Source of the DNA: a phage
Direction: 5' to 3' (one strand)
Assembly (NCBI GenBank): GCA_011911785.1
Contig: GCA_011911785.1_4084.1
DNA length: 64,000 nt
Under the pieces are notes generated by a model. It had not been told where the DNA came from and did no database searches. It saw only the letters and a program-made list of their open reading frames with translations. The position numbers were made by a program, and so were the translations under genes. Every line of letters starts with the position of its first letter. The stretch's first letter is position 1. Of this stretch, positions 634-11,749 are shown in pieces.

Positions 634-634
634 T

Positions 635-844
635 ATGCTTACTGTACAGGATAAGATCGACATCTTAAAGGTTAATATGTATGTGATTGATGCCGTACCT
701 GGTAAAGTATTTGCATACGATGATTCTAATCGTAGTCCTTTCTATTGTAGTCATGTAGTTGGATACGTGCCGTTGGCGTATGTTATCGAAAGAGTGGTTG
801 ATGCAGCATACAATCATTTTTTAGAAAATAATACTTGCAATTAG
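635..844 (+). CDS. hypothetical protein (69 aa)
   Basis: track ORF 608-844 trimmed to ATG overlapping upstream stop (TAATATG). Confidence 0.4.
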   Translation: MLTVQDKIDILKVNMYVIDAVPGKVFAYDDSNRSPFYCSHVVGYVPLAYVIERVVDAAYNHFLENNTCN

Positions 845-896
845 TTTTCAGTACTGTATAATTGTTTACATAGAGGGGGGAAATGGTTCTCCCCTG
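835..896 (+). promoter_or_regulatory. sigma70-like promoter (TTGCAA-N16-TATAAT) plus G-rich 5'UTR stem-loop (PeSL-like cassette)
   Basis: TTGCAA 835-840, AGTACTG then TATAAT 857-862, hairpin GGGGGGAAatggTTCTCCCC about 873-895. Confidence 0.55.
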
Positions 897-913
897 ATAC
901 TAGGAGAATCAAA

Positions 914-1066
914 ATGAAACAATACAACGCTCGGTTTGATGTTACTATCGGCAACGGCAAAGGTCAATTTTCTTTCAGTACTCGTCGCAGTTATACAGAA
1001 AACTTCCTGCGTAATTGTGCATTGACCGCCGCACAAATTAAACATTACTTCCAGGCTAAAAAATGA
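914..1066 (+). CDS. hypothetical small protein (50 aa)
   Basis: RBS AGGAGAA upstream; below track cutoff. Confidence 0.45.
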   Translation: MKQYNARFDVTIGNGKGQFSFSTRRSYTENFLRNCALTAAQIKHYFQAKK

Positions 1067-1152
1067 AATCATTGGCTTATTACAGTTCGGCGGTGATCGG
1101 TGCATTGATCGCGGCATTGTTAGTAACCTATCTATTCTTTGTGGTGATTTAA
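1063..1152 (+). CDS. hypothetical 29-aa hydrophobic peptide (single predicted TM helix)
   Basis: ATGA stop/start overlap with previous ORF; MKSLAYYSSAVIGALIAALLVTYLFFVVI. Confidence 0.3.
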   Translation: MKSLAYYSSAVIGALIAALLVTYLFFVVI

Positions 1153-1290
1153 ATGAATCCTAACGGTTTAATTTACAGTGCTCCTAAAACGAAAGCAGAT
1201 AAAGCGAAAGCACGTAAAGCGAAAGTAAAGGAGTACATCAAGCAAGGCATGACGCGAAAAGCAGCAGTACTAAAAGCTAAAAATAAATGA
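1153..1290 (+). CDS. hypothetical Lys-rich small protein (45 aa)
   Basis: ATG directly after upstream stop; KAxKAK repeats. Confidence 0.35.
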   Translation: MNPNGLIYSAPKTKADKAKARKAKVKEYIKQGMTRKAAVLKAKNK

Positions 1291-1297
1291 AAAAAGT

Positions 1298-1375
1298 GGT
1301 TGACTTCGGTCAGCCATTTTGCTATTATATATTCATTGAGAGATAGCTCACTAGCCCACCGGGTGCGGAAGTGTA
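1298..1375 (+). promoter_or_regulatory. repeat copy 1 of 4: intrinsic-terminator hairpin fused to sigma70 promoter (TTGACT-N17-TATTAT) plus conserved leader
   Basis: hairpin TGGTTGAC-ttcg-GTCAGCCA then T-run; -35 inside 5' arm of stem; leader block ...AGCCCACCGGGTGC... Confidence 0.6.
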
Positions 1376-1409
1376 AATAAAATATATCAATCTAATAAGG
1401 AGTACTACA

Positions 1410-1592
1410 ATGTTTAAACCAATCGAACTAGCGGCATCACATATCATCGGTAAACCTGCCGTTATCATACGCCAGGAAGACGTAAACCTATGGATCATCT
1501 ATGTAGACATGAAAGAGATTGAGCGTCACGATGATTTCAAATCAGCGTCAATTGCGTATGATATGGCGTTATGTGAGTATCAAAGAGATTAA
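1410..1592 (+). CDS. hypothetical protein (60 aa)
   Basis: RBS AAGGAG upstream of ATG. Confidence 0.55.
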   Translation: MFKPIELAASHIIGKPAVIIRQEDVNLWIIYVDMKEIERHDDFKSASIAYDMALCEYQRD

Positions 1593-1612
1593 AAGTATTT
1601 TGCAAAAAGTAC

Positions 1613-1671
1613 TTGCATTGTACTTAGAATCAAGTATAATGTTTTACATAGCAAGGGGAAACGGTTTCCCC
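1613..1671 (+). promoter_or_regulatory. sigma70-like promoter (TTGCAT-N16-TATAAT) plus 5'UTR stem-loop (PeSL-like)
   Basis: AAGTAC-TTGCATT-GTACTT inverted repeat around -35; TATAAT 1635-1640; hairpin GGGGAAACggTTTCCCC 1655-1671. Confidence 0.6.
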
Positions 1672-1691
1672 TGGTAATAAGGAAACGAATC

Positions 1692-2033
1692 ATGACTATC
1701 TCAATTGCTCAATCTAACTTTGAAAACGAAATCATCGCCCAGGCACTGCGTTTAAATGATGGTCGGGCCGAAATTAATTACGGTTTCAATTCAGGCGGTT
1801 GTGAAAACTATCAGTACTTTGTAACGGCTGATGGCGGTGTCCTGGGAATCAATACAGTTATTGTAAACATTCAGAAAATTAATTTCAATGATCCAGACGA
1901 TAGCCAGTTTTACATTGTCGGCGTAGACGTGAACTATGAGGATGACTCACTAACTGATGATTGCACTGGTGAGAAGTTAGAAAGTGCATACGGTGAAGAT
2001 GATTATCAGTCCGGTCCAGAAGATTTCGAATAA
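1692..2033 (+). CDS. hypothetical acidic protein (113 aa)
   Basis: RBS AAGGAAA; D/E-rich C-terminal half. Confidence 0.6.
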   Translation: MTISIAQSNFENEIIAQALRLNDGRAEINYGFNSGGCENYQYFVTADGGVLGINTVIVNIQKINFNDPDDSQFYIVGVDVNYEDDSLTDDCTGEKLESAYGEDDYQSGPEDFE

Positions 2034-2047
2034 TATTAAAAAATAGT

Positions 2048-2106
2048 TTGACAATAGATTATAGTACTGTATAATAGTTTACATCAAGGGGAGAATAGTT
2101 CTCCCC
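2048..2106 (+). promoter_or_regulatory. sigma70-like promoter (TTGACA-N16-TATAAT) plus 5'UTR stem-loop (PeSL-like)
   Basis: TTGACA 2048-2053, AGTACTG-TATAAT 2070-2075, hairpin GGGGAGAAtagTTCTCCCC 2088-2106. Confidence 0.65.
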
Positions 2107-2128
2107 ACTAACAGAGAGAGAAAACAAA

Positions 2129-2341
2129 ATGGCTAATATCCGGTCGAAATTGAAAAATGCAAAACAAGTTTTATTTTCAGACCATGAATACTTTAATAAA
2201 GATATTACAGGAGTTACAAGTATCAAGGAAGTAAAAGAAAAAACTGGCGTTTTGTGTGATGTGCGATTGGTTGGAACATTTGGGAATAACGTGCTATATC
2301 GATGCGGTGATTATAACTTTACATTAACCATTATCGATTAA
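2129..2341 (+). CDS. hypothetical protein (70 aa)
   Basis: ORF downstream of promoter cassette; RBS GAGAGAGA. Confidence 0.55.
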   Translation: MANIRSKLKNAKQVLFSDHEYFNKDITGVTSIKEVKEKTGVLCDVRLVGTFGNNVLYRCGDYNFTLTIID

Positions 2342-2360
2342 AAATATTATCACAGTACTA

Positions 2361-2389
2361 TTGACAAAGATTGATAGTACTGGCATAAT
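2361..2389 (+). promoter_or_regulatory. sigma70-like promoter (TTGACA-N17-CATAAT)
   Basis: TTGACA 2361-2366, AGTACTG, CATAAT 2384-2389. Confidence 0.5.
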
Positions 2390-2423
2390 AGATTTTATCA
2401 ACTACACTACTAAGGAATTAAAA

Positions 2424-2603
2424 ATGGCTATCATCGCAAAAACTGAAATCGTTGGTCTGGATTCTATCATCATGACGTTTGAAGATCAAAAAGGGATGTA
2501 TGTAGTTTCCTATGGTGATTATGTTCGGGAGTATGAAACGGTAGACGAAGCCTTTGAAAGTTACATTCGCCAGGTGAATAAAGCATACGACGACTACCGC
2601 TAA
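2424..2603 (+). CDS. hypothetical small protein (59 aa)
   Basis: track ORF 2361-2603 trimmed: its first ATG lies inside the promoter; RBS AAGGAA precedes ATG 2424. Confidence 0.5.
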   Translation: MAIIAKTEIVGLDSIIMTFEDQKGMYVVSYGDYVREYETVDEAFESYIRQVNKAYDDYR

Positions 2604-2630
2604 AATATATTACCAGTACTATTAAAGATA

Positions 2631-2658
2631 TTGACATAGTTTGATAGTACTGTATAAT
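2631..2658 (+). promoter_or_regulatory. sigma70-like promoter (TTGACA-N16-TATAAT)
   Basis: TTGACA 2631-2636, AGTACTG-TATAAT 2653-2658. Confidence 0.55.
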
Positions 2659-2702
2659 AAGTTTTATCAACAGTAGTTAACTTAACCTAAGAGAGAAAGA
2701 AA

Positions 2703-2846
2703 ATGATCGCACTGGATTCATTCATCGAAGCAGTACTGGCAAAAACTGGCGAAGATCTGACCGCAGAACAATACGCAATGATCGAACAATGCCAGCAAGA
2801 CGGTAAATCGGTGAAAGATACTGTTAAGATTATCCGCAAGATGTAA
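2703..2846 (+). CDS. hypothetical small protein (47 aa)
   Basis: RBS AGAGAGAAAG; below track cutoff; followed by intrinsic terminator. Confidence 0.45.
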   Translation: MIALDSFIEAVLAKTGEDLTAEQYAMIEQCQQDGKSVKDTVKIIRKM

Positions 2847-2852
2847 GATTAT

Positions 2853-2883
2853 AGCCCACTGGTTAACGCTGGTGGGCTTTTTA
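2853..2883 (+). terminator. rho-independent terminator
   Basis: stem AGCCCAC/GTGGGCT followed by TTTTT. Confidence 0.65.
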
Positions 2884-2967
2884 GTATATACCTATCCGAT
2901 AGTACTACAAAATAGATTAGCTCGTTAGAATGCGTTTGAGAGCGTTTAAATAAGTACTAAAAAGTAA

Positions 2968-2995
2968 TTGACAGTACTGAAAGATAGTATATAAT
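2968..2995 (+). promoter_or_regulatory. sigma70-like promoter (TTGACA-N16-TATAAT)
   Basis: TTGACA 2968-2973 then AGTACTG; TATAAT 2990-2995. Confidence 0.55.
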
Positions 2996-3024
2996 ATTTT
3001 ATATCTTAACTGAGGATAGAAATC

Positions 3025-3381
3025 ATGGGAATACAACACATCACGCGTACTACTGACAATGGTGAGATCACTGGTTATCAAGTACAGGGAAAAGCGTCAC
3101 AATTGCAGTACTGGTTTGAAAAACGTGGATTGATTGCACCGGATCTTGATTATGACCGTGTAGCGTTTATTGATTCTCTTTATGTTGATTCTGCTAGTCG
3201 GGGTAATGGTGAAGGCACGGAATTGATGAACGCCTTTATTGATGCCGCCGATGATTCAGATTGTATCATTTTAGAATGCGATACGGGAGAAGATAACGCC
3301 TTTAATCTTAAAGAATGGTACGAAGGTTTCGGATTCGAAGTACTGATCGATAGTGAATATCCTATCATGATTTTATCGTAG
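3025..3381 (+). CDS. putative GNAT-family N-acetyltransferase (118 aa)
   Basis: RBS GAGGA; segment VAFIDSLYVDSASRGNGEGTELM resembles GNAT motif A (R-G-x-G-x-G). Confidence 0.5.
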   Translation: MGIQHITRTTDNGEITGYQVQGKASQLQYWFEKRGLIAPDLDYDRVAFIDSLYVDSASRGNGEGTELMNAFIDAADDSDCIILECDTGEDNAFNLKEWYEGFGFEVLIDSEYPIMILS

Positions 3382-3394
3382 TACTAAAAAGTAA

Positions 3395-3451
3395 TTGACA
3401 GTACTGATAGATAGTGTATAATGTTTTACATGAAGGGGAAACATCTTCCCC
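3395..3451 (+). promoter_or_regulatory. sigma70-like promoter plus 5'UTR stem-loop (PeSL-like)
   Basis: TTGACA 3395-3400, TATAAT 3417-3422, hairpin GGGGAAacatcTTCCCC. Confidence 0.6.
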
Positions 3452-3463
3452 TACTAAGAGGAA

Positions 3464-3658
3464 ATGAAAATGGAAAACTTATCAAGTATTTTAGTACAAG
3501 ATGAATACGGCAATCCAGGAAGTGCTATCATTGTTCGGGGTAATAAGGCAACGTTTGTTATTGCTGGTGGACCTGTACAGCGTAGCATTAAAAACAATGC
3601 CGTTACTATTAATAATGTACGCTATCGCTTAGATAAAGAATTGATTCACAAACTGTAA
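3464..3658 (+). CDS. hypothetical protein (64 aa)
   Basis: RBS AAGAGGA upstream. Confidence 0.55.
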   Translation: MKMENLSSILVQDEYGNPGSAIIVRGNKATFVIAGGPVQRSIKNNAVTINNVRYRLDKELIHKL

Positions 3659-3685
3659 TATTAATTTAATAGAGGATAACAATAA

Positions 3686-4009
3686 ATGTACATTCATACT
3701 ACTATCACAAAGGAAGTCCGTTGCCAGTTCGAAAGTATTCCGGGCGTATGTTTCATCACTGGTACGTTTTCCCCTGGTGATCGTGATAATCCAGTACTGT
3801 TACAATTACGCCATCCATCATGGGATAAAGCATTTGATCTACCGTTGAATGAATTCGCAACTACTGCTGAAAAGTACATTAAAAATATTCGCGAGAATGA
3901 TCGACTATTCATTAATGCTTTTAGTGATTCCGCGTTAAGCGAGATCCACGGCGTATTGGTTGCAATCATGGAATCTATGCAGAAAACTAAATTCAAACAA
4001 GGTGAATAA
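3686..4009 (+). CDS. hypothetical protein (107 aa)
   Basis: RBS GAGGA upstream of ATG. Confidence 0.6.
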   Translation: MYIHTTITKEVRCQFESIPGVCFITGTFSPGDRDNPVLLQLRHPSWDKAFDLPLNEFATTAEKYIKNIRENDRLFINAFSDSALSEIHGVLVAIMESMQKTKFKQGE

Positions 4010-4015
4010 AAACTA

Positions 4016-4075
4016 TTGACAATGCAATCCAGTACTGTATAATAAGTTACATGAAGGGGAGAAATGATTCTCCCC
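4016..4075 (+). promoter_or_regulatory. sigma70-like promoter plus 5'UTR stem-loop (PeSL-like)
   Basis: TTGACA 4016-4021, AGTACTG-TATAAT 4038-4043, hairpin GGGGAGAAatgaTTCTCCCC 4056-4075. Confidence 0.65.
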
Positions 4076-4093
4076 AGTACTGAGGAAAGAAAA

Positions 4094-4306
4094 ATGCAAG
4101 GTCAACTAATCGTTCGTAAATGGTCTGATACTAACGAAAAACCGTGGGATGTACAATACATCGCCCCCAATGGTGAATCCAGATATCAACCAGGTGTAAC
4201 GCATAGTACTGAGCAATTCGCCGCCGCACACCGTGAACGCCTGTTACAATCCATGCAGCAAGGCTTCGGTGAAAAATTCATCCAAGATCATTGGCTGAAA
4301 GATTAA
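4094..4306 (+). CDS. hypothetical protein (70 aa)
   Basis: track ORF 4064-4306 trimmed: first ATG is inside the UTR hairpin; RBS GAGGAAAG precedes ATG 4094. Confidence 0.55.
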   Translation: MQGQLIVRKWSDTNEKPWDVQYIAPNGESRYQPGVTHSTEQFAAAHRERLLQSMQQGFGEKFIQDHWLKD

Positions 4307-4314
4307 AAAAGTAC

Positions 4315-4371
4315 TTGTGAAGTACTTAGAATCAAGTATAATGTTTTACATAGAGAGGGGAATAGTTCCCC
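4315..4371 (+). promoter_or_regulatory. sigma70-like promoter (TTGTGA-N16-TATAAT) plus 5'UTR stem-loop (PeSL-like)
   Basis: TATAAT 4337-4342, hairpin GGGGAAtagTTCCCC 4357-4371. Confidence 0.55.
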
Positions 4372-4393
4372 TCCTAACAAAAAGGAAAGTAAC

Positions 4394-4567
4394 ATGATCC
4401 AAGTAGAATTGACAGTACTGAAAGATCTGTTTTATCGGATGGGTACTACTGGCGAATATCCGAAAGGTGATACCGCAAAACTTTACGTATCGCTGGATGT
4501 ATGGCAACGCGAACAATTAGCAACGGCCTGGCGTAAAGGCAAAGCAGATCGCGAGGTGCAAGCATGA
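4394..4567 (+). CDS. hypothetical small protein (57 aa)
   Basis: RBS AAGGAAAG; below track cutoff. Confidence 0.45.
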   Translation: MIQVELTVLKDLFYRMGTTGEYPKGDTAKLYVSLDVWQREQLATAWRKGKADREVQA

Positions 4568-4713
4568 AAGAATACTTATTCGAAGTTACATTTTTGGGGC
4601 AAGGTATGCACCAACTAGTAAGATCCAGCGGTTATAGTCTTAACCAGGCATGGAATAACTTAAAGAAAATGTACCCTAACGCTATCACATATCGCAACCC
4701 AAAAGAAGTTTAA
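4564..4713 (+). CDS. hypothetical small protein (49 aa)
   Basis: ATGA stop/start overlap with previous ORF. Confidence 0.4.
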   Translation: MKEYLFEVTFLGQGMHQLVRSSGYSLNQAWNNLKKMYPNAITYRNPKEV

Positions 4714-4727
4714 AAATAATTGAAAAA

Positions 4728-4806
4728 GGGATTGACTCCGGTCAGTCCCTTTGCTATTATATACGCATAGAAACAAATCAGCCCACAGGGTGCATAAATG
4801 TATCTA
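4728..4806 (+). promoter_or_regulatory. repeat copy 2 of 4: terminator hairpin fused to promoter (TTGACT-N17-TATTAT) plus conserved leader
   Basis: hairpin GGGATTGAC-tccg-GTCAGTCCC then TTT; TATTAT 4755-4760. Confidence 0.65.
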
Positions 4807-4859
4807 TTATATGCTGGTGGACGTATTATCTAGTACTGAAAACTATTATAAAAAAGTAC

Positions 4860-4926
4860 TTGCATTGTACTTAGAATCAAGTATAATGTTTTACATCAGG
4901 ACGGGGAATGAAACAAGTAACCCCGT
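4860..4926 (+). promoter_or_regulatory. sigma70-like promoter (TTGCAT-N16-TATAAT) plus stem-loop
   Basis: TATAAT 4882-4887; hairpin ACGGGG...CCCCGT 4901-4926. Confidence 0.5.
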
Positions 4927-4975
4927 TAAGTAGTCCAGGAGTAAGACATAAGAAAACCTCCCCTGATAAAATAGT

Positions 4976-5003
4976 TTGACAATAGAAAGTAAACGAGTAT
5001 AAT
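4976..5003 (+). promoter_or_regulatory. sigma70-like promoter (TTGACA-N16-TATAAT)
   Basis: TTGACA 4976-4981, TATAAT 4998-5003. Confidence 0.55.
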
Positions 5004-5035
5004 ACTTACATCAACCACTGATAAGGAAACATAAA

Positions 5036-5311
5036 ATGCGGATTCTACTGACAGCTAACGAAATCGAACAAGTACTGACTACTAACCTGCAAGACTGGAA
5101 ACGTGAAGCAGATATCCAGGCGGTTCAATGGCTTAACGATAAGTTAACGCCGGATGACTTAAGCAAGATTGTAGATCCTCAATTCTATGAAGATATTCAC
5201 GACACCGCGTTAAGCGTCGAGGATGTACTTGATAAGCACTACATTGATATTGATTTGCAGGTTTACGGTCGTAAAAACTTTATCACTATTCACGACATTT
5301 ACAATAATTAA
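5036..5311 (+). CDS. hypothetical protein (91 aa)
   Basis: RBS AAGGAAA upstream of ATG. Confidence 0.6.
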   Translation: MRILLTANEIEQVLTTNLQDWKREADIQAVQWLNDKLTPDDLSKIVDPQFYEDIHDTALSVEDVLDKHYIDIDLQVYGRKNFITIHDIYNN

Positions 5312-5314
5312 GTA

Positions 5315-5375
5315 TTGACAAAGTATCTTAGTACTGTATAATAGTTTACATCAAGTGAGGGGAATGGTTCCCCTC
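5315..5375 (+). promoter_or_regulatory. sigma70-like promoter plus 5'UTR stem-loop (PeSL-like)
   Basis: TTGACA 5315-5320, TATAAT 5337-5342, hairpin GAGGGGAAtggTTCCCCTC; near-identical to cassette at 5585. Confidence 0.65.
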
Positions 5376-5398
5376 CTAACTAAAAGAGAGAAATAAAA

Positions 5399-5581
5399 AT
5401 GGCTAAGTGCACTATCTGTAAGAAAGAAATCGTATTAGTTCCAAGTGCCCGTGAACGTGCCGCTCGGTTCGGTGGCAAAGCGTCAGACTATACAAAAATG
5501 TTTACTACCCATGCAGATTGCCAGGTAGCAAAACGTTCACAAGAAAGCGTAGAATTAATGCGTAAACTTTCCAGAAAATAA
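5399..5581 (+). CDS. hypothetical protein (60 aa), possible Zn-ribbon (CxxC...HxxC)
   Basis: RBS AGAGAGA; CTICKK...HADC. Confidence 0.5.
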   Translation: MAKCTICKKEIVLVPSARERAARFGGKASDYTKMFTTHADCQVAKRSQESVELMRKLSRK

Positions 5582-5584
5582 GTA

Positions 5585-5646
5585 TTGACAAAGTATCTTA
5601 GTACTGTATAATAGTTTACATCGAGTGAGGGGAAACGGTTCCCCTC
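5585..5646 (+). promoter_or_regulatory. sigma70-like promoter plus 5'UTR stem-loop (PeSL-like)
   Basis: TTGACA 5585-5590, TATAAT 5607-5612, hairpin GAGGGGAAacggTTCCCCTC. Confidence 0.65.
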
Positions 5647-5669
5647 CTAACAAAGAGAGAGAAATAAAA

Positions 5670-5993
5670 ATGGCTATGATCCTCACCCAGAAAGTAGAAC
5701 TGAAAATTGTAACCTCCTTTGACATTAAAGTTAATCGGTGGACTGATTCACACGGCAATACTTACCACTCTTGCTACGTGTCTGCTTTGATTGGTGATCG
5801 CTGGGAGGATTTAGGACATGAAACCTTTACTTACGGTTACGGCACACAAGGCGAATACACAGGCTTGGAGATCATTAAAGAAACCGTTATAGGTTTCAAC
5901 CCGAAAGAAAAAGTTATTCATCAAATAGAAAAAGAGATCAACAAAGAAATAACAGTTCGATACTACGATGTAAAACGTAAGAAAGACATGTAA
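5670..5993 (+). CDS. hypothetical protein (107 aa)
   Basis: track ORF 5625-5993 trimmed to ATG after RBS GAGAGAGA; upstream part is promoter/hairpin. Confidence 0.55.
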   Translation: MAMILTQKVELKIVTSFDIKVNRWTDSHGNTYHSCYVSALIGDRWEDLGHETFTYGYGTQGEYTGLEIIKETVIGFNPKEKVIHQIEKEINKEITVRYYDVKRKKDM

Positions 5994-6488: not shown

Positions 6489-6510
6489 TAACTTGCAGTA
6501 CTAACAACAC

Positions 6511-6536: not shown

Positions 6537-6550
6537 TAGGATAAACTAAA

Positions 6551-6805
6551 ATGATTAAGGTTCAACTATCAAAAGATAATATCTTGCGGGTACACTATAA
6601 AGCACCACAGAGAATCATCACAAAGGCCGTACAGCTTGCTAATGAGTTTATTAATGGTAATCTATTGCCCAGGAAGTTAAGCAACGGCAAACTGCGTGTA
6701 ATCGATGTAGACACTAACAACAGAATAGTAATCGAGAATACAGGAAAGATAAACCTATATGAACACCAACAATATAATAAGAAAATAAAACTAATATCAC
6801 GTTGA
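6551..6805 (+). CDS. hypothetical protein (84 aa)
   Basis: RBS AGGA upstream of ATG. Confidence 0.5.
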   Translation: MIKVQLSKDNILRVHYKAPQRIITKAVQLANEFINGNLLPRKLSNGKLRVIDVDTNNRIVIENTGKINLYEHQQYNKKIKLISR

Positions 6806-6830
6806 CAGTACTCAATTGTTTTAGTACTAT
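6802..6830 (+). promoter_or_regulatory. sigma70-like promoter (TTGACA-N17-TACTAT)
   Basis: duplicated cassette, also at 7078. Confidence 0.45.
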
Positions 6831-6858
6831 GTATCTATACCAACACGGGAGAAACAAA

Positions 6859-7077
6859 ATGAAATTATCTAAAATCGAAAAGAAAACTATTGATGAAGCA
6901 GTTAAGCACGGTTATACCTTTCGTAATGATTCACATTTTACCAATTTTCAACAAGGGTATCGTACTATTAAAAAACTTATTGACAAAGGTTTATTAGTTG
7001 AAGTCAATAACGGTAACGGTATCGAGTATCAACCAACACAAGACGCATTATCTTTAAAGAAATATGCAATTATCTAA
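6859..7077 (+). CDS. hypothetical protein (72 aa)
   Basis: track ORF 6802 trimmed to ATG after RBS GGGAGAAA. Confidence 0.5.
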   Translation: MKLSKIEKKTIDEAVKHGYTFRNDSHFTNFQQGYRTIKKLIDKGLLVEVNNGNGIEYQPTQDALSLKKYAII

Positions 7078-7106
7078 TTGACAGTACTCAATTGTTTTAG
7101 TACTAT
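7078..7106 (+). promoter_or_regulatory. sigma70-like promoter (TTGACA-N17-TACTAT)
   Basis: near-identical copy of cassette at 6802. Confidence 0.45.
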
Positions 7107-7142
7107 ATGTACATACCAACACGGAATAACTGGAGAAACAAA

Positions 7143-7370
7143 ATGATTAATATCTTAGAACGCATCAAAGAAACTACTACGCTGGTGGATCTACTCAATG
7201 TACTGACTTTTAAAGTAACTCGGTTTAGTACTCCTGAATTTATCAACCTCATTGATAGTAAAGGTGAATACCGCATCACTATTGAAAATGGTCGTGCTAA
7301 TGTATTCAGTACTAAATCAGGTAAAACCGCAATTCATTCAGTAATTGCAAATAAAACTGTTGCAATCTAA
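7143..7370 (+). CDS. hypothetical protein (75 aa)
   Basis: track ORF 7107 trimmed to ATG after RBS GGAGAAA. Confidence 0.5.
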   Translation: MINILERIKETTTLVDLLNVLTFKVTRFSTPEFINLIDSKGEYRITIENGRANVFSTKSGKTAIHSVIANKTVAI

Positions 7371-7378
7371 TTAGTACT

Positions 7379-7438
7379 AACATATAATAGTCACATCAAG
7401 GCAGGGAATACCTCCCTGCTATCTTAAAGAGTAAATGC
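7379..7438 (+). promoter_or_regulatory. sigma70-like promoter (TTGCAA-N17-TATAAT) plus 5'UTR stem-loop
   Basis: TATAAT 7402-7407; hairpin GCAGGGA...TCCCTGC. Confidence 0.5.
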
Positions 7439-7439
7439 A

Positions 7440-8024
7440 ATGCGTAATTATACTAAATTCATCCGTACACTGGCAGAAATGGAAACTAATAAAGAGATCC
7501 TTACAGCTTGTCGGTTGGCTGGTCTGGAGATCATCGGGGCCGGATCATCCCGTATCGTATTCGCTTTAAATGATCGGTTAGTGATTAAGGTCGCTAATTG
7601 TGACGCTGGCGTAGAACAAAATGAAACAGAATGTAAGGTATGGAATTTTTTAGATTATGACCGCCCTCACCTTAAACAGTACTTTGCTAAGGTGCATATG
7701 CATTTAAGCGATCCTGATAATATGTTTATTGTTATGGATCGTTTGAGTACTGCAAGCAAAGGCAGTGTAAAGCACGTTAACGCTTGCAATGAATTAAAGT
7801 ACAATGTCAAACGTAACACTATTGAACGCCAACACCATTTCGCTGATGCACTACAACACGTTGATGATACCTTATCAACACTAACGATAAGAGATATCAG
7901 AAAGCAGAACATAGGCCAAGATCGCAATGGCCTGATTAAAGTACTTGATTACGGTTTAACCCGCAATATCTGGAATCAGTACTATAAACAACGCGACGTA
8001 AAAGCCGTAACTATAACACGATAA
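7440..8024 (+). CDS. putative protein kinase-like protein (194 aa)
   Basis: Gly-loop IGAGSSRIVF, VIKV lysine, catalytic-loop-like IRDIRKQNI (compare HRDLKPENI), DFG-like LDYG. Confidence 0.5.
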   Translation: MRNYTKFIRTLAEMETNKEILTACRLAGLEIIGAGSSRIVFALNDRLVIKVANCDAGVEQNETECKVWNFLDYDRPHLKQYFAKVHMHLSDPDNMFIVMDRLSTASKGSVKHVNACNELKYNVKRNTIERQHHFADALQHVDDTLSTLTIRDIRKQNIGQDRNGLIKVLDYGLTRNIWNQYYKQRDVKAVTITR

Positions 8025-8038
8025 AAAAGATTAAAAAA

Positions 8039-8120
8039 GGGATTGACTCCAGTCAGTCCCTTTGCTATTATATAGTCATTGAGAGATAACTCACTGACCC
8101 ATAGGGTGCATAAGTGTATC
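8039..8120 (+). promoter_or_regulatory. repeat copy 3 of 4: terminator hairpin fused to promoter plus conserved leader
   Basis: hairpin GGGATTGAC-tcca-GTCAGTCCC then TTT; TATTAT 8066-8071. Confidence 0.65.
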
Positions 8121-8166
8121 TATAATATAAGTATTGTCAGTACTGAAAACTATTTTTAAAAAGTAC

Positions 8167-8229
8167 TTGCATTGTACTTAGATTCAAGTATAATGTTTTA
8201 CATAGAGAGGGGGAAATAGTTCTCCCTCA
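8167..8229 (+). promoter_or_regulatory. sigma70-like promoter (TTGCAT-N16-TATAAT) plus 5'UTR stem-loop (PeSL-like)
   Basis: AAGTAC-TTGCATT-GTACTT; TATAAT 8189-8194; G-rich hairpin. Confidence 0.6.
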
Positions 8230-8248
8230 AAGAATAAGGAATAAAATC

Positions 8249-8470
8249 ATGACTACAATGACTTGCATTTACGCTTCCAATCTTCTGAATGATGCGGCCT
8301 TTAATGTTGATTCAGAATATCAATGTTATCGGGATGAAAATAAAAAAGTTTTTGTAGTTGATAATAATGGTTTCCATATTGAATTACAATCCGGCTTCAC
8401 TGGTGTTGATGGTAAATCAGTATGGGGCGTTCAGGATGATAAAGGCACATATCATTTTAAACGTAATTAA
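8249..8470 (+). CDS. hypothetical protein (73 aa)
   Basis: RBS AAGGAA upstream. Confidence 0.55.
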   Translation: MTTMTCIYASNLLNDAAFNVDSEYQCYRDENKKVFVVDNNGFHIELQSGFTGVDGKSVWGVQDDKGTYHFKRN

Positions 8471-8473
8471 GTA

Positions 8474-8532
8474 TTGACAAAGTATATCAGTACTGTATAA
8501 TAGTTTACATCAAGGGGAGAATAGTTCTCCCC
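8474..8532 (+). promoter_or_regulatory. sigma70-like promoter plus 5'UTR stem-loop (PeSL-like)
   Basis: TTGACA 8474-8479, AGTACTG-TATAAT 8496-8501, hairpin GGGGAGAAtagTTCTCCCC 8514-8532. Confidence 0.65.
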
Positions 8533-8553
8533 GATACTAAAAGGAATAAAATC

Positions 8554-8961
8554 ATGACTACTACTAATCAAGCTCGGTCCATCACCAACGATAAAAATCA
8601 TGCTGCAATGGTCGCTGGTTACATTGAAGCTATGCAATTCAGTACTGTACACAATGAGAACGGCGACTACCTGGAAGATTATGAATTATCAGAGCAAGCC
8701 CATCAAGCGGCAGTGATTGCATGTTCTCGTTTCCTTGAGAAGTTTAGTAATGAAATGGAAGCAGTACAAAAACACCATAATCCTGATTATACTTATAGTC
8801 ATGCAGGTCATGATCTCTTTCTTACCCGCGAAGGTCACGGTACTGGCTTTTGGGATCGTGATATCGGTCACTATGACGATGTATTCACTAAGTACTGCGA
8901 AGAAATCAACGTTTGCGATCCCTATGTAGGCGATGATAATCTAATCTATATGGGCGAATAA
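8554..8961 (+). CDS. hypothetical protein (135 aa)
   Basis: RBS AAGGAA; His/Gly-rich motif HAGHDLFLTREGHGTGFWD. Confidence 0.6.
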   Translation: MTTTNQARSITNDKNHAAMVAGYIEAMQFSTVHNENGDYLEDYELSEQAHQAAVIACSRFLEKFSNEMEAVQKHHNPDYTYSHAGHDLFLTREGHGTGFWDRDIGHYDDVFTKYCEEINVCDPYVGDDNLIYMGE

Positions 8962-8967
8962 AAGTAT

Positions 8968-9026
8968 TTGACAAAGCATATCAGTACTGTATAATAGTTT
9001 ACATCAAGGGGAGAATAGTTCTCCCC
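8968..9026 (+). promoter_or_regulatory. sigma70-like promoter plus 5'UTR stem-loop (PeSL-like)
   Basis: near-identical copy of cassette at 8474; TTGACA 8968-8973, TATAAT 8990-8995. Confidence 0.65.
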
Positions 9027-9048
9027 ACTACTAAAAGGAAACAAAATT

Positions 9049-9321
9049 ATGTCTAGCTACTCCGCTACTATGATCATCAAAGATATGAACGGTAATCCTA
9101 CTTCCGCTGGTGGATCATTTGGAAACATTAACTTAGATGGTCGGTTATCAATGGAATCAGCCATCAATGCAGCGAAAGAAGTTTTTAAGAATGAATGTAC
9201 TGTAAGCAAGCTGGATTATATGGGCTTCGCTATCGAGAAAACTAAACGTTTTGTGGACTACAAAAATCCACTGATGATTGATACTAACCTGAAAGCTAAC
9301 GAAGTGGAATACTTATTATGA
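9049..9321 (+). CDS. hypothetical protein (90 aa)
   Basis: RBS AAGGAAA upstream. Confidence 0.55.
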   Translation: MSSYSATMIIKDMNGNPTSAGGSFGNINLDGRLSMESAINAAKEVFKNECTVSKLDYMGFAIEKTKRFVDYKNPLMIDTNLKANEVEYLL

Positions 9322-9509
9322 CAGTTGATGAAGTTAAAAAAGTACTGGCAGTACTACGCTATCATAATCATTGTAAGGTTAAGAATGATCCTGATTATGT
9401 TGATTCATCCCTGGAGGAAGACACCTTAAACGCGATAAGCCATATGCAAACATTAGCAAAGCGTATGACCGAAAAGAATAGGCCGGACTATATCGGAAAT
9501 AAAATTTAA
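9318..9509 (+). CDS. hypothetical protein (63 aa)
   Basis: ATGA stop/start overlap with previous ORF. Confidence 0.5.
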   Translation: MTVDEVKKVLAVLRYHNHCKVKNDPDYVDSSLEEDTLNAISHMQTLAKRMTEKNRPDYIGNKI

Positions 9510-9516
9510 AAAGTAC

Positions 9517-9578
9517 TTGCATTGTAGTTAGATTAACGTATAATGTTTTATATCGAGAGGGGGAAATGGTTTCCCCTC
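9517..9578 (+). promoter_or_regulatory. sigma70-like promoter (TTGCAT-N16-TATAAT) plus 5'UTR stem-loop
   Basis: TATAAT 9539-9544; hairpin GAGGGGGAAAtggTTTCCCCTC. Confidence 0.6.
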
Positions 9579-9596
9579 AAGTCCAGGAGATACACC

Positions 9597-9863
9597 ATGA
9601 ACACTATCGAAATCACTATCAATGCTCACGTATACGACAACGTAGTACTGCAAACTACTATGACCGCTAACGATACCAGTACTTTGCGGAATACTGTTAT
9701 AAGTGCTGTATGTGCCGCTATCGGTGATGTATCCCTGGAAAACGCAGAACACATCAATAACGGTTTCACTATGTGCAAACGTGATAACGCAAAACATATC
9801 ATCGTAGAAGGTTACGGCGGTGTAGAATATAATCTTTATATGAAAAAAGTACTTGCATCGTAA
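9597..9863 (+). CDS. hypothetical protein (88 aa)
   Basis: track ORF 9543 trimmed to ATG after RBS AGGAGA. Confidence 0.55.
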   Translation: MNTIEITINAHVYDNVVLQTTMTANDTSTLRNTVISAVCAAIGDVSLENAEHINNGFTMCKRDNAKHIIVEGYGGVEYNLYMKKVLAS

Positions 9864-9909
9864 GTAAAACAAAGTATAATGTTTTGCATAGGGGGAGATA
9901 TCCTCCCCC
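9853..9909 (+). promoter_or_regulatory. sigma70-like promoter (TTGCAT-N16-TATAAT) plus 5'UTR stem-loop
   Basis: TATAAT 9875-9880; hairpin GGGGGAGatatCCTCCCCC. Confidence 0.6.
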
Positions 9910-9928
9910 ACTAATAAGGAGTACTACG

Positions 9929-10153
9929 ATGGCTAATCATGATGAACTGATTCGGGAAGTAGCTAACCTGGCGGCAGAAAAGAAATCATTTGATTCTATC
10001 TATAACACCGCTCACCGTGATTCAGTACTGGCATGTAATCAGGATCAAAAAGATGAACTGATCGCAACCTATCATGAAGCGTGGAAGTATTACCGTCAAT
10101 GGGAGAAAGAAGAAAAAGCATCAACCATAAGAGGATTAAATAATCTAGTATAA
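9929..10153 (+). CDS. hypothetical protein (74 aa)
   Basis: track ORF 9884 trimmed to ATG after RBS AAGGAG. Confidence 0.55.
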   Translation: MANHDELIREVANLAAEKKSFDSIYNTAHRDSVLACNQDQKDELIATYHEAWKYYRQWEKEEKASTIRGLNNLV

Positions 10154-10160
10154 CAATAAA

Positions 10161-10189
10161 AGGGGATGATAATATCCCCTTAATAATTT
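10161..10189 (+). terminator. putative intrinsic terminator
   Basis: stem AGGGGAT/ATCCCCT followed by an A/T-rich tract. Confidence 0.45.
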
Positions 10190-10205
10190 CTATAATAGGT
10201 TAACA

Positions 10206-10472
10206 ATGAAAAAGAAAACAACATATCGCTATAATAAAAATTATCAATCCGTTGTATTAGATCACTCTATGCTCCCGCTCGTTGTCCCTGCCGTTGGTGT
10301 AGTCTATCAATCCATATACTGGTCAAGGAAACAACAAAAGTACTTAAAAGGCCCAATAGCACGCTATGAGGGTAATGGTGTATGGTCCGATCCGTTACAT
10401 CCAATCACTACGCGTTATATTGAATATTTTCCTTATTGTGACTACATTGAAATACATCCTAAATTTAATTGA
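10206..10472 (+). CDS. hypothetical protein (88 aa), paralog of 10553-10810
   Basis: shared motif GNGxWxDPxxP...DYIE with the next ORF. Confidence 0.55.
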   Translation: MKKKTTYRYNKNYQSVVLDHSMLPLVVPAVGVVYQSIYWSRKQQKYLKGPIARYEGNGVWSDPLHPITTRYIEYFPYCDYIEIHPKFN

Positions 10473-10477
10473 TAGTA

Positions 10478-10531
10478 TTGACAGTACTAACTGATAGTGT
10501 ATAATGTTTTGCATAGGGGGAATACTCCCCC
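10478..10531 (+). promoter_or_regulatory. sigma70-like promoter plus 5'UTR stem-loop
   Basis: TTGACA 10478-10483, TATAAT 10500-10505, hairpin GGGGG-aatact-CCCCC. Confidence 0.6.
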
Positions 10532-10552
10532 AATATTAAAAGGGGAAACATC

Positions 10553-10810
10553 ATGGAACAATTCACACAATATCGGGTAAATCCTCAAGCTATGGCCTAC
10601 GTAGAAGACCATAAAACGTTACCAGTACTGCAACCAGTTAAAGGCCGTATCTATCGTGGCCTTGCATGGAATACGGCCCAGGATGGATATAAAACCGTTG
10701 CCGTGGGGATGTATTGCGGTAATGGTGAATGGTTTGATCCAAATAATCCGGTAGCTATTGACAGTACTGAAAAAATGAAATGGGCCGACTATATCGAGGA
10801 TATCTCATAA
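10553..10810 (+). CDS. hypothetical protein (85 aa), paralog of 10206-10472
   Basis: RBS AAGGGGAAA; shared motif CGNGEWFDPNNP. Confidence 0.55.
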   Translation: MEQFTQYRVNPQAMAYVEDHKTLPVLQPVKGRIYRGLAWNTAQDGYKTVAVGMYCGNGEWFDPNNPVAIDSTEKMKWADYIEDIS

Positions 10811-10816
10811 AACTAT

Positions 10817-10877
10817 TTGACAGTACTATCATATAGTGTATAATGTTTTACATAGAGCGGGGGAATAGTTCTCCCGC
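10817..10877 (+). promoter_or_regulatory. sigma70-like promoter plus 5'UTR stem-loop
   Basis: TTGACA 10817-10822, TATAAT 10839-10844, hairpin GCGGGGGAAtagTTCTCCCGC. Confidence 0.6.
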
Positions 10878-10899
10878 CAATAGTTTGGAGTAAAACATT

Positions 10900-11100
10900 A
10901 TGTCAATCGCTAACGAAATGATCGCAGTACTGAAAGAAGCTAAAGCCAACCTGATCGACGTAAAGATCCAGGAACTACAATCCGGCTTAATCGGCTGTAC
11001 TTGTACCGCTGGTGGGGCGACAGATTATCGTGAATTCGAATCACTCGAATCGATGGTTCGGTATCTTACAATGATCGTGGAAGATTGGAAGATCATCTAA
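10900..11100 (+). CDS. hypothetical protein (66 aa)
   Basis: RBS GGAG upstream. Confidence 0.55.
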   Translation: MSIANEMIAVLKEAKANLIDVKIQELQSGLIGCTCTAGGATDYREFESLESMVRYLTMIVEDWKII

Positions 11101-11118
11101 CAAAAAAGAATAAAAAAA

Positions 11119-11196
11119 GGGATTGACTCCGGTCAGTCCCTTTGCTATTATATACGCATAGACAAAAACTAGCCCACAGGGTGCATAAGTGTATCC
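11119..11196 (+). promoter_or_regulatory. repeat copy 4 of 4: terminator hairpin fused to promoter plus conserved leader
   Basis: hairpin GGGATTGAC-tccg-GTCAGTCCC then TTT; TATTAT 11146-11151. Confidence 0.65.
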
Positions 11197-11264
11197 AAAA
11201 TATATAGTTAATAACGGTGAGTAACTATCTGCTGGTGGAGTGAAAACTATTAATAAAAAAAGTA

Positions 11265-11293
11265 TTGACAAAGTATATCAGTACTGCAATAAT
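11265..11293 (+). promoter_or_regulatory. sigma70-like promoter (TTGACA-N17-AATAAT)
   Basis: TTGACA 11265-11270, AGTACTG, weaker -10. Confidence 0.45.
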
Positions 11294-11347
11294 GTATCTC
11301 GTAGGGCGGCAATGGTGCGACGGCCCACAAAGTTAGGAGATTCACAA

Positions 11348-11680
11348 ATGAGTACTTCAATCGCCATCGTTAATGCTTTCATCCGTACCAATGTTTCTTC
11401 TGTATTCATCGACGGACTGGATCGGGAAGTAGAATACTCAATCATTATCGCACAGACTGCAAACGGTGCTCGGTATATCCTCAATGATAGCGAAGCAAAT
11501 CACTACTACTACACTAAAGCTACTGGCTTTAAACGCATCGATGCGGACGTAGTATACGCTAAGATGAATAAGCTGGTAGACAAGATTAACGCTAAAGGTA
11601 CTATCGATTTACAGTACTGGACCGAAACCGATCCAGAATATGGATCTCACCGCTACCTGAATCCAGGTATTAAAATGTAA
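11348..11680 (+). CDS. hypothetical protein (110 aa)
   Basis: track ORF 11240 trimmed to ATG after RBS AGGAGA. Confidence 0.55.
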   Translation: MSTSIAIVNAFIRTNVSSVFIDGLDREVEYSIIIAQTANGARYILNDSEANHYYYTKATGFKRIDADVVYAKMNKLVDKINAKGTIDLQYWTETDPEYGSHRYLNPGIKM

Positions 11681-11687
11681 AAAGTAC

Positions 11688-11749
11688 TTGCATAGTACTT
11701 AGTAAAGTGTATAATGTTTTACATAGAGAGGGGGAAATGGTTCTCCCTC
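11688..11749 (+). promoter_or_regulatory. sigma70-like promoter (TTGCAT-N16-TATAAT) plus 5'UTR stem-loop
   Basis: TATAAT 11710-11715; G-rich hairpin 11728-11749. Confidence 0.6.

Follow-up and report, generated by a model that had tools for sequence, protein, structure and literature searches.

Promoter cassettes with a predicted leader hairpin in the direct terminal repeat of a jumbo coliphage of the genus Asteriusvirus, and the turnover of early genes between them

Introduction

The closest described counterparts of the elements considered here are the promoter early stem-loop (PeSL) cassettes of T4-type phages, in which the stem-loop lies between the promoter boxes, overlaps one of them, sits upstream of the -35 box or falls just before the start, and has been read as a terminator of upstream transcription (PMC2839356). 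In phages PST and nt-1 the PeSL stem-loops are found just upstream of the promoter and are likewise described as terminating transcription from upstream (PMC4122927). Here we analyze the first 12 kb of a 64,000-nucleotide stretch of phage DNA (contig GCA_011911785.1_4084.1 of GenBank assembly GCA_011911785.1; the whole stretch is hereafter called the window), an array of small open reading frames (ORFs) preceded by repeated promoter cassettes, most of which also specify a G/C-rich hairpin in the transcribed leader.

Two further systems bear on these elements. In E. coli, ompA- and papA-type 5' stem-loops block 5'-end-dependent attack by RppH and RNase E, and a 5'-terminal stem-loop is an established stabilizer of mRNA (Emory, Bouvet and Belasco 1992; Bouvet and Belasco 1992; both cited in the review PMC3997798). 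The terminal repeat of coliphage T5 carries clusters of strong sigma70 early promoters (PN25 and others) that are conserved around the start site and are expressed first; we know of no conserved leader hairpin that follows these promoters and of no link between them and cassette shuffling. In PA5oct, a distant relative of the phage studied here, early transcription is high for many genes of the terminal repeat, and mapping has placed sigma70-like promoters around start sites (PMC7318152). In the relative CBB, RpoD-like promoters are concentrated on the terminal repeat and ahead of short hypothetical ORFs (PMC5259590). For rV5, the genome paper gives sigma70 promoters and no leader hairpin (PMC3606486). 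Our search of the searchable literature found no published description of these cassettes for Asteriusvirus, RaK2-like or rV5-like phages, which is not proof of novelty.

We propose, with a probability of about 60%, that the array, which lies in the direct terminal repeat of an Asteriusvirus, is made up of self-expressing cassettes of early genes, in which a leader hairpin is combined with a recombination scheme. Cassette-mediated gene shuffling, hitherto described only for T4-type phages, would thereby be extended to jumbo phages and to terminal repeats, and a stem-loop that lies within the transcribed leader would separate the repeat's role in recombination from the role of a terminator.

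Results

Setting of the array in a direct terminal repeat

To judge by its sequence, the source phage is an Asteriusvirus (121Q/PBECO4-type) jumbo coliphage and not a T4-type phage. A megablast search of window positions 1-12000 against the phage collection matched 76 records, nearly all of them 121Q/PBECO4-type jumbo coliphages of ~350 kb; the Asteriusvirus matches had 90-92% identity at a coverage of only 35-70%, split over 5-15 pieces. The record of phage vB_Ec-M-J places the stretch homologous to the array within 21.5-kb Direct Terminal Repeats, and the annotated end of that repeat corresponds to ~12.6 kb in the window, just past the last cassette, c11688 (modules and genes are named c and g, respectively, with the position at which they begin). 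From this annotation and the mapped end, the array appears to be the right-hand 12 kb of a jumbo-phage direct terminal repeat. The related-phage database records examined contain no promoter annotation for the region.

Past the repeat end, from 13174 onward, the window holds tightly packed, overlapping small ORFs without individual promoters, with 72-83% identity to vB_Ec-M-J as against 91% within the repeat.

Promoter modules

A promoter scan of positions 1-12200 found 13 matches to all 12 letters of TTGACA-N16/17-TATAAT, every one on the + strand, where chance would give ~0.004 in 12 kb with both strands counted; just 3 such perfect promoters occur in the remaining 52 kb of the window. The motif TATAATNNTTTACAT is present between 857 and 11724 in 13 exact copies and in 7 more with one mismatch. 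When every intergenic space was read, 26 sigma70-type modules were recognized on the + strand between 835 and 11770, half of them perfect (13) and half near-consensus (13), with an A/T-rich stretch upstream of the promoter. A G-rich hairpin follows in 17 of these (class I), a variant hairpin in two (c4860, ~4901; c11265, ~11301) and no hairpin in seven (2361, 2631, 2968, 4976, 6016, 6802 and 7078). An earlier reading, made from the letters of the window and hereafter called the sequence-only reading, had announced about 25 promoter plus stem-loop cassettes, a figure that holds for the promoters and is too high for the complete units. Four further modules (1293, 4725, 8036 and 11116) are of a different type, terminator-promoter composites (class II), and are listed with the terminators below. 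The 26 modules are:

835-913, + strand: cassette c835, -35 TTGCAA (835-840), -10 TATAAT (857-862), hairpin 874-895 (9 bp, one G.U, -14.3 kcal/mol), Shine-Dalgarno (SD) sequence, ATG 914
1613-1691, + strand: cassette c1613, TTGCAT-16-TATAAT (1635-1640), hairpin 1654-1672, ATG 1692
2048-2128, + strand: cassette c2048, TTGACA-16-TATAAT (2070-2075), hairpin GGGGAGAAtagTTCTCCCC 2088-2106 (z -3.6), ATG 2129
2361-2423, + strand: promoter module c2361, TTGACA-17-CATAAT, no hairpin, ATG 2424
2631-2702, + strand: promoter module c2631, perfect consensus, no hairpin, ATG 2703
2968-3024, + strand: promoter module c2968, perfect consensus, no hairpin, ATG 3025 (GNAT acetyltransferase gene), core near-identical to c3395
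3395-3469, + strand: cassette c3395, perfect consensus, hairpin 3434-3452, ATG 3464/3470
4016-4093, + strand: cassette c4016, perfect consensus, hairpin 4056-4075, ATG 4094
4315-4393, + strand: cassette c4315, TTGTGA-16-TATAAT, hairpin 4355-4373, ATG 4394
4860-4975, + strand: promoter c4860, TTGCAT-16-TATAAT, predicted structured transcript of ~82 nt without an ORF, stem 4901-4926, 5' and 3' ends pair
4976-5035, + strand: promoter module c4976, perfect consensus, no hairpin, ATG 5036
5315-5398, + strand: cassette c5315, perfect consensus, hairpin 5357-5375, ATG 5399, left copy flanking variable gene 5399-5581
5585-5669, + strand: cassette c5585, perfect consensus, hairpin 5627-5646, ATG 5670, right copy, 92% identical to c5315
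6016-6083, + strand: promoter module c6016, perfect consensus, 17-nt spacer, no hairpin, ATG 6084
6802-6858, + strand: promoter module c6802, TTGACA-17-TACTAT, no hairpin, ATG 6859, left copy flanking variable gene 6859-7077
7078-7142, + strand: promoter module c7078, core same as c6802, no hairpin, ATG 7143
7360-7439, + strand: cassette c7360, TTGCAA-17-TATAAT, divergent hairpin GGCAGGGAataccTCCCTGCT 7400-7420, ATG 7440 (kinase-like gene)
8167-8248, + strand: cassette c8167, TTGCAT-16-TATAAT, hairpin 8207-8228 (one G.U), ATG 8249
8474-8553, + strand: cassette c8474, perfect consensus, hairpin 8514-8532, ATG 8554, left copy flanking variable gene 8554-8961
8968-9048, + strand: cassette c8968, perfect consensus, hairpin 9008-9026, ATG 9049, right copy, 90% identical to c8474 with a 49-nt identical core
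9517-9596, + strand: cassette c9517, TTGCAT-16-TATAAT, hairpin 9557-9578 (one G.U), ATG 9597 (variable gene)
9853-9928, + strand: cassette c9853, TTGCAT-16-TATAAT, hairpin GGGGGAGatatcCTCCCCC 9891-9909, ATG 9929
10478-10552, + strand: cassette c10478, perfect consensus, hairpin GGGGGAatacTCCCCC 10516-10531, ATG 10553
10817-10899, + strand: cassette c10817, perfect consensus, hairpin 10857-10877 (one G.U), ATG 10900
11265-11347, + strand: cassette c11265, TTGACA-17-AATAAT, variant hairpin ~11301-11328 (GGGCGG...CGGCCC), ATG 11348, similar leader in phage A73
11688-11769, + strand: cassette c11688, TTGCAT-16-TATAAT, hairpin 11728-11749 (one G.U), ATG 11770, last before the repeat end at ~12.6 kb

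Compared over the stretch that begins 12 nt ahead of the -35 box and runs to the ATG, c5315 and c5585 are 92% identical and c8474 and c8968 90%, and the promoter core of c6802 is identical to that of c7078. The proteins encoded downstream of these three pairs have no similarity to one another (blastp, E<=10). The claim of the sequence-only reading that near-identical cassettes stand before unrelated ORFs thus stands for the first two pairs and for the core of the third, which carries no hairpin and has a weak -10 box, TACTAT. Two near-identical pairs beyond those it named are c2968/c3395 and c9517/c9853. The segment (A/G)TTTACAT, which it took to be the initial transcribed segment, is placed differently here, since TTTACAT, located by its spacing from the -10 box, would mostly cover the discriminator and the start site (-4 to +3). 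An extended -10 (TGn) interpretation of ACTGTATAAT was rejected, as the G lies at -13 and not -14 and the scan marks TG as absent.

Two observations concern the wording of the promoters and leaders. The palindrome AGTACT occurs 231 times in the whole window against 21.5 expected from base composition, and CAGTACTG 62 times against 0.6; the three hexamers in greatest excess are CAGTAC, GTACTG and AGTACT. Coding and non-coding DNA both contain the motif, which very often immediately precedes the -10 box (cagtactgTATAAT), likewise in Klebsiella phage Muenster, and its excess suggests a candidate genome-wide binding or modification site. Additionally, hairpin-less promoters (window 6802-6858 and 7078-7142, and several in locus L011; L numbers denote loci of other phages) tend toward an A/C-rich leader, (C)ATACCAA(A/C)AC..., and a leader of this type also follows PeSL promoters of RB49 (L012; CATACCGAAACGAA) and many Muenster promoters (CATACCAAAC). 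It may be an unstructured leader type common to these phages.

The class I leader hairpin

The 17 class I hairpins are G/C-rich, with stems of 6-9 bp and folding energies of -10.6 to -16 kcal/mol, and their loops vary from 3 to 6 nt and differ in sequence between cassettes. Each lies at about +5 to +27 of its own predicted transcript and ends 17-23 nt before the ATG, in a predicted leader of 41-51 nt; with the predicted start placed 7-8 nt after the -10 box, 1-6 nucleotides at the 5' end are left unpaired. From this leader geometry the hairpin would adjoin the 5' edge of the initiating ribosome. In none of the cassettes tested does the minimum-free-energy fold pair the true SD.

MAFFT alignments of whole cassettes and of all hairpins were not structure-consistent, and RNAalifold found no structure on the whole-cassette alignment. 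These alignments were replaced by a covariance model built from seven equal-length hairpins, taking the hairpin alone. In the 64-kb window this model recovers 16 of the 17 class I hairpins, all on the + strand between 874 and 11749, and its matches outside the class I set are lower-scoring stems that resemble intrinsic terminators (16.4 bits at 10160, <=12.9 bits beyond 12 kb). When nine related terminal repeats were added to the window, the + strand matches came to 122. In the model-based alignment 90.5% of the stem cells are base-paired, compared with 61-79% in controls in which the 3' partner was slid, and changes on both sides occur at 6 of the 9 stem pairs (55 cells versus 18.3 in shuffles). 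Among 45 distinct + strand hairpins, pairs 2-9 include 22 G.U and 6 A.C pairs, and stems containing G.U lose 3-4 kcal/mol when the opposite (-) strand is folded. This excess of G.U and the weaker fold of the - strand point to sense-strand RNA as the molecule in which the hairpin forms. Conservation was measured in 96 comparisons of orthologous cassettes, which leave out locus L009 (CMSTMSU, flagged UNVERIFIED and apparently error-prone). Divergence in the promoter was 0.5% for the -10 box, 4.3% for the -35 box and 17% for the spacer, and in the leader it was 4% for the stem arms, 6% for the SD, 11.5% for the loop, 16% for the linker and 22% for the pre-stem segment.

The strongest argument for structure comes from Muenster, an Alcyoneusvirus. 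Its terminal repeat repeats the order TTGACA, a spacer of 16-17 nt whose last letters are often cagtactg, TATAAT, gtattaCAT, hairpin, SD and ATG, with stems (GGGGATACA/TGTATCCCC, GGGAATGAA/TTCATTCCC, AGAGATTCCA/TGGAATCTCT) that are unrelated in sequence to those of Asteriusvirus; position and pairing are kept where sequence is not. The SD-like GGGGAG that the sequence-only reading had pointed out in the 5' arm is consequently not a general feature, and a role that depends on this sequence is unlikely because the Muenster stems differ.

For each strong promoter, the position of the hairpin was scored as the distance between the end of the -10 box and the nearest G/C-rich hairpin. A start 10-14 nt downstream of the box was found for 167 of the 240 Asteriusvirus promoters with a hairpin nearby (39 others have the hairpin at -40, as in class II), for 10 of 18 in Muenster and for all 4 in A73, a Vequintavirinae phage. 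In RB49, the phage in which PeSLs were first described, the start precedes the end of the -10 box by 16-25 nt in 9 of 14 hairpins, which places them inside the spacer; its intergenic sequences read TTGACA-ggggatc...gatcccc-TATAAT, along with variants that overlap the -10 box. Blastn detected no similarity between the window cassettes and RB49-type cassettes. In Rfam, the whole window had no match at the gathering score, and positions 1-12200 had none at E<=1. An antitermination hairpin of the nut/boxB type was considered and set aside, as loop length and sequence vary and no Rfam match is seen at E<=1.

Terminators and class II composites

None of the 17 class I hairpins is followed by a T-run (at least 5 T in 8 nt), and a terminator scan flags none of them. 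It flags instead 2853, 6511, 10160 and the four class II composites, seven T-run terminators spaced 1.5-3.5 kb apart that divide the array into transcription units:

1293-1380, + strand: class II composite, hairpin 1293-1320 enclosing -35 TTGACT (1300-1305), -10 TATTAT (1323-1328), conserved leader AGCCCACCGGGTGC, z -5.4
2853-2886, + strand: canonical intrinsic terminator, 11-bp stem then T-run, after gene 2703-2846
4725-4800, + strand: class II composite, hairpin 4725-4752 enclosing -35 TTGACT (4732-4737), -10 TATTAT (4755-4760), conserved leader AGCCCACAGGGTGC
6511-6537, + strand: canonical intrinsic terminator, GGCGGGAtcagtTCCCGCC then TTTTTT
8036-8110, + strand: class II composite, hairpin 8036-8063 enclosing -35 TTGACT (8043-8048), -10 TATTAT (8066-8071), conserved leader, z -4.8
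10160-10190, + strand: terminator-like hairpin AAGGGGATGataaTATCCCCTT, after gene 9929-10153
11116-11195, + strand: class II composite, hairpin 11116-11143 enclosing -35 TTGACT (11123-11128), -10 TATTAT (11146-11151), conserved leader

An efficient terminator at the class I position would be self-defeating because the hairpin would be transcribed from its own promoter. Termination as the main function of the class I hairpin was rejected on three counts, namely its location inside its own transcript, the missing T-run and the presence of separate terminators in the array.

The class II composite is built on a hairpin of 12 bp flanked by runs of A and T (z about -5), whose 5' arm and loop contain the -35 box TTGACT and which is followed by the TATTAT -10 box and a conserved leader. 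The copy at 1293 departs from the others by compensatory stem changes, and in the UE-S1 record the hairpin homologous to window 8036 is annotated as 'terminator'. The class II leader motif AGCCCAC(A/C)GGGTGC-N5-TGTATCTATA is common to Asteriusvirus and Muenster and contains no ORF. The region downstream of the class II promoters folds no better than shuffled sequence (z +0.6 to -0.7), with a small conserved hairpin only. Composites of this type occur in L011 near 2236, 8810, 13919, 17076 and 18636, and a similar hairpin with TTGACT and TATTAT lies outside the terminal repeat at ~38.6 kb of the window (38604-38650).

Recombination between cassettes and gene turnover

Gene order is colinear in nine relatives. 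The sequence-only reading had called for a comparison of cassette-flanked gene content among related phages; this comparison yielded eight variable genes (g1410, g3025, g3686, g5399, g6859, g8554, g9597 and g10206) and found cassettes in the relatives' genomes. Five of the variable genes (g3025, g5399, g6859, g8554 and g9597) lie in the window between near-identical cassettes. Where g5399, g6859, g8554 or g9597 is missing, the empty site holds a single chimeric cassette, its left part derived from the left copy and its right part from the right. The empty site of g3025 also holds a single cassette, but its left flank differs and the junction is not clean.

The chimeras allow crossovers to be placed. 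At the g8554 empty site of L002, L004, L006, L007 and L008 the cassette is of c8474 type through 'CCCCGATACT' and of c8968 type from 'ACAAAATTATG', which puts the crossover within the common 11-nt ACTAAAAGGAA, while in 121Q (L003) it lies further left, within the 49-nt identical promoter-hairpin core. The g5399 crossover falls in the 3' arm or linker in L005 and L006 and at the SD/ATG in L003, that of g6859 in the promoter core in L008, and that of g9597 in the spacer just after TTGCAT in L003. Because crossover points differ between genomes, repeated homologous recombination is indicated and not one site-specific event; site-specific recombination was rejected on this dispersal.

Blast breakpoints between relatives point to the same places. 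They lie just upstream of a -35 box at 822, 2958, 3385, 4008, 5576, 9844 and 11250, at the start of a -35 box at 5315, at the end of a hairpin at 894 and 10536, and a few codons into a gene at 5401 and 8565. For 27 of 123 orthologous genes the cassette in front has been replaced, and g3470 has three cassette types upstream, depending on the phage. The gene g8554 is held by 15 phage records and g5399 by 41, and c8474 is matched at >=80% coverage in 48 records. Cassette-mediated shuffling of early genes, as envisaged by the sequence-only reading, is thus well supported by the sequence comparison of nine relatives, in which variable genes are flanked by near-identical cassettes, empty sites are chimeric and breakpoints fall at cassette edges.

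Spread beyond Asteriusvirus

An 88-nt cassette used as a blastn query matched 10-23 copies per Asteriusvirus record, and also matched Alcyoneusvirus (RaK2, K64-1 and Muenster) and several coliphages of 140-150 kb from Vequintavirinae and its relatives. A pattern scan of IMG/VR with TATAATNNTTTACATNNNNGGGG returned 4 stretches, two of them from the 121Q genome; the pattern was too specific and was not used for distribution. Phage A73 carries cassettes almost identical to those of the window (for example, TATAATacattacatcaaGGGGAGAAtagTTCTCCCC), and the two have eight small genes in common, at 29-86% protein identity and in a different order. The same cassette design, along with some of the small genes, recurs in at least three lineages of phages, which suggests that host-takeover genes are exchanged in a common currency.

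Gene content and a candidate small RNA

The array comprises 35 defined small ORFs, mostly orphan, and Pfam searches of the 10 largest matched only one GNAT domain, one domain of unknown function (DUF) and one weak kinase. The only recognizable products are the GNAT acetyltransferase (3025-3381) and a weak protein-kinase-like ORF (7440-8024, Pfam E 1e-3), whose Muenster homologue is annotated as a putative protein kinase. Both would fit host-takeover early functions. The adjacent genes 10206-10472 and 10553-10810 are paralogues (35% protein identity, E 9e-18); among ten phages compared, the first copy, g10206, is found only in the source phage, and upstream of it stands the terminator-like hairpin instead of a cassette.

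The predicted c4860 transcript (~82 nt, no ORF; CAUCAGGACGGGG...CCUCCCCUGAU) pairs at its ends (-17.9 kcal/mol, z -2.3), and its inner stem has one compensatory change and presents AGGAG in the loop. The element is present in two copies per Asteriusvirus terminal repeat (e.g. L001 3563-3646 and 14017-14098), is 94% identical in A73 (also listed is L010 9883-10000) and has a looser relative in Muenster. With no Rfam match to the element, the transcript is a candidate for a conserved phage small RNA.

Discussion

How the array may work

In the scheme that we favor, each cassette runs from an A/T-rich upstream stretch through a near-consensus sigma70 promoter, with the start site in a ...TTTA-CAT motif, to the SD and start codon of a small gene, and two thirds of the cassettes besides specify a G/C-rich hairpin in the nascent RNA. 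Host RNA polymerase would fire these promoters once the DNA end enters the cell, a step that is strongly indicated, though by sequence only. The hairpin would then form in sense-strand RNA, as indicated by covariation and strand asymmetry, and, with a ribosome bound next to it, may protect the short leader against 5'-end-dependent decay through RppH and RNase E. The same shielding could extend to 5' ends made by processing of read-through RNA upstream of the hairpin. Termination would be left to other hairpins, those with a T-run, among them the four composites in which the following -35 box lies inside the stem. Finally, comparative genomics shows the 50-90 bp direct-repeat cassettes behaving as homology patches, where recombination deletes, inserts or replaces single genes and swaps promoters, with every recombinant retaining its own expression signals. 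Protection of the mRNA 5' end is the most likely role for the hairpin, although we would put it at slightly less than an even chance; the suggestion of mRNA stability in the sequence-only reading remains the best functional guess.

Several points weigh against this scheme. Start sites, timing and hairpin formation are predictions for this phage group, the longer unpaired 5' ends would sit at the limit that a 5' stabilizer tolerates, and the hairpin is not essential for expression, since seven promoters of the array lack one. The covariation set consists of paralogues and orthologues of common ancestry, which inflates the shuffle statistics. Among orthologues, single stem changes are pair-breaking in 36 cases, arising partly from alignment slippage, and pair-keeping in 20, with 4 double pair-keeping changes. 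Purines make up 97% of the Asteriusvirus 5' arm and 2% of the 3' arm, and no hairpin has its arms swapped. Such polarity is not predicted by pure structural selection and points either to sequence-specific recognition or to recent common descent with gene conversion. Nearly all non-coding DNA of the array is cassette, so that breakpoints located there could partly reflect the survival of recombinants with intact genes. The chimeric single cassettes are the stronger evidence.

Alternative explanations of the hairpin

It is improbable, in our estimate, that the hairpins are terminators or attenuators of transcription from upstream that insulate each gene, as proposed for the T4-type PeSLs. Most array genes are preceded by a hairpin, and a GGGG...CCCC-type PeSL stem-loop of RB49 was reported to cut a downstream lacZ reporter as strongly as rrnB T1 (PMC2839356). 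Moreover, the RB49 stem-loops that we inspected also lack a clear U-tract, and some attenuation of read-through is conceivable here, which likewise counts against the favored scheme. However, the hairpin lies downstream of its own start site, where an efficient terminator would abort its own transcripts at ~+30, and seven canonical T-run terminators are found elsewhere in the array while all 17 hairpins are without a T-run. More improbable still is that the inverted repeats act in duplex DNA, either as operators for a dimeric phage repressor that blocks at +5 to +27 or as recombination hot spots for an enzyme that recognizes their structure or sequence. Roadblock repression typically uses a site just past the start, Asteriusvirus phages conserve both the GGGG...CCCC core and the strict purine/pyrimidine polarity, crossovers occur in or beside the hairpin, and the PeSL authors also speculated on a DNA-binding protein (PMC2839356). 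Yet the stems vary with compensation and are wholly different in Muenster at the same position, the loops vary in length (3 to 6 nt) and sequence, and a G.U to A.C ratio of 22:6 is not expected of a site in duplex DNA. The crossovers, moreover, are spread over spacer, promoter core, 3' arm and SD region, which fits general homologous recombination.

A very small chance is given to a role in tuning translation, in which competition with the ribosome-binding site, or a standby site, would come from the SD-like GGGGAG of the 5' arm or the anti-SD-like CUCCCC of the 3' arm. Many Asteriusvirus 5' arms do hold GGAG or GAGG, the 3' arm resembles the 16S anti-SD, and the 17-23 nt between the hairpin and the ATG put its end at the edge of the ribosome footprint. 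But the folds of every cassette tested leave the true SD unpaired, several stems have no GGAG, and the Muenster stems (GGGAAUGAA, AGAGAUUCCA and GGGGAUACA) keep the position while being unlike either an SD or an anti-SD.

A wider proposal, which we regard as doubtful, is that the leader hairpin is a structure-specific signal used by large myoviruses of enterobacteria from several unrelated families (Asteriusvirus, Alcyoneusvirus and Vequintavirinae) and that, with the promoter, it defines an inter-family, integron-like pool of plug-and-play early genes moving between co-infecting phages through recombination inside cassettes. The hairpin could then protect early transcripts against 5'-end-dependent nucleases of the host or against RNA-targeting defences, or serve a phage factor as a handle. 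Apart from this proposal, the array offers a clean, testable case of a 5' RNA element that is conserved on dozens of predicted phage early messages. The cassettes would also provide ready-made strong promoter and leader parts, and would mark sites for the insertion or removal of accessory early genes in therapeutic jumbo phages.

Comparison with known systems

With the PeSL cassettes of RB49/phi1, T4/PST and KVP40/nt-1 (PMC2839356, PMC4122927) the array shares a near-consensus sigma70 promoter, an A/T-rich upstream stretch, a stem-loop of a G-run and a C-run, and an SD and ATG. Both are repeated before small orphan genes where the genome is most plastic, and in both the indel and replacement junctions of close relatives lie inside cassettes, with flanking copies that bracket single variable genes. 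The four class II composites, in which a stem enclosing the -35 box is followed by a T-run, even match a described positional subclass of PeSL. In contrast, the class I stem-loop lies downstream of the -10 box in its own leader and that of PeSL within or upstream of the promoter, and PeSL hosts are T4-type phages (Straboviridae) whereas the array belongs to an Asteriusvirus and fills its terminal repeat. The PeSL match proposed by the sequence-only reading therefore extends to the repeated cassettes and the recombination signature, but not to the phage type, to the stem-loop position 10-14 nt downstream of the -10 box or to a T-run. The class I cassettes are PeSL-like in behavior yet, by the position of their stem-loop, fail one defining feature.

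The ompA and papA 5' stem-loops are alike in having a stable hairpin near the 5' end (a predicted end in the array), no U-tract, an accessible ribosome-binding site and a short leader. Unlike them, the hairpin here is part of a repeated, recombining module on dozens of phage genes, and its stabilizing effect is proposed by analogy. As in T5, a cluster of very strong host-type promoters, with sequence conserved around the start site, lies in first-expressed, terminally redundant DNA. The movement of morons is attributed to illegitimate recombination that involves no conserved flanks and that of integron cassettes to a site-specific integrase at attC, whereas the crossovers here are spread along the cassette and implicate no integrase. 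What the array has in common with both is that single accessory genes move along with their own expression signals, or into them, and that gene content varies at fixed intergenic positions.

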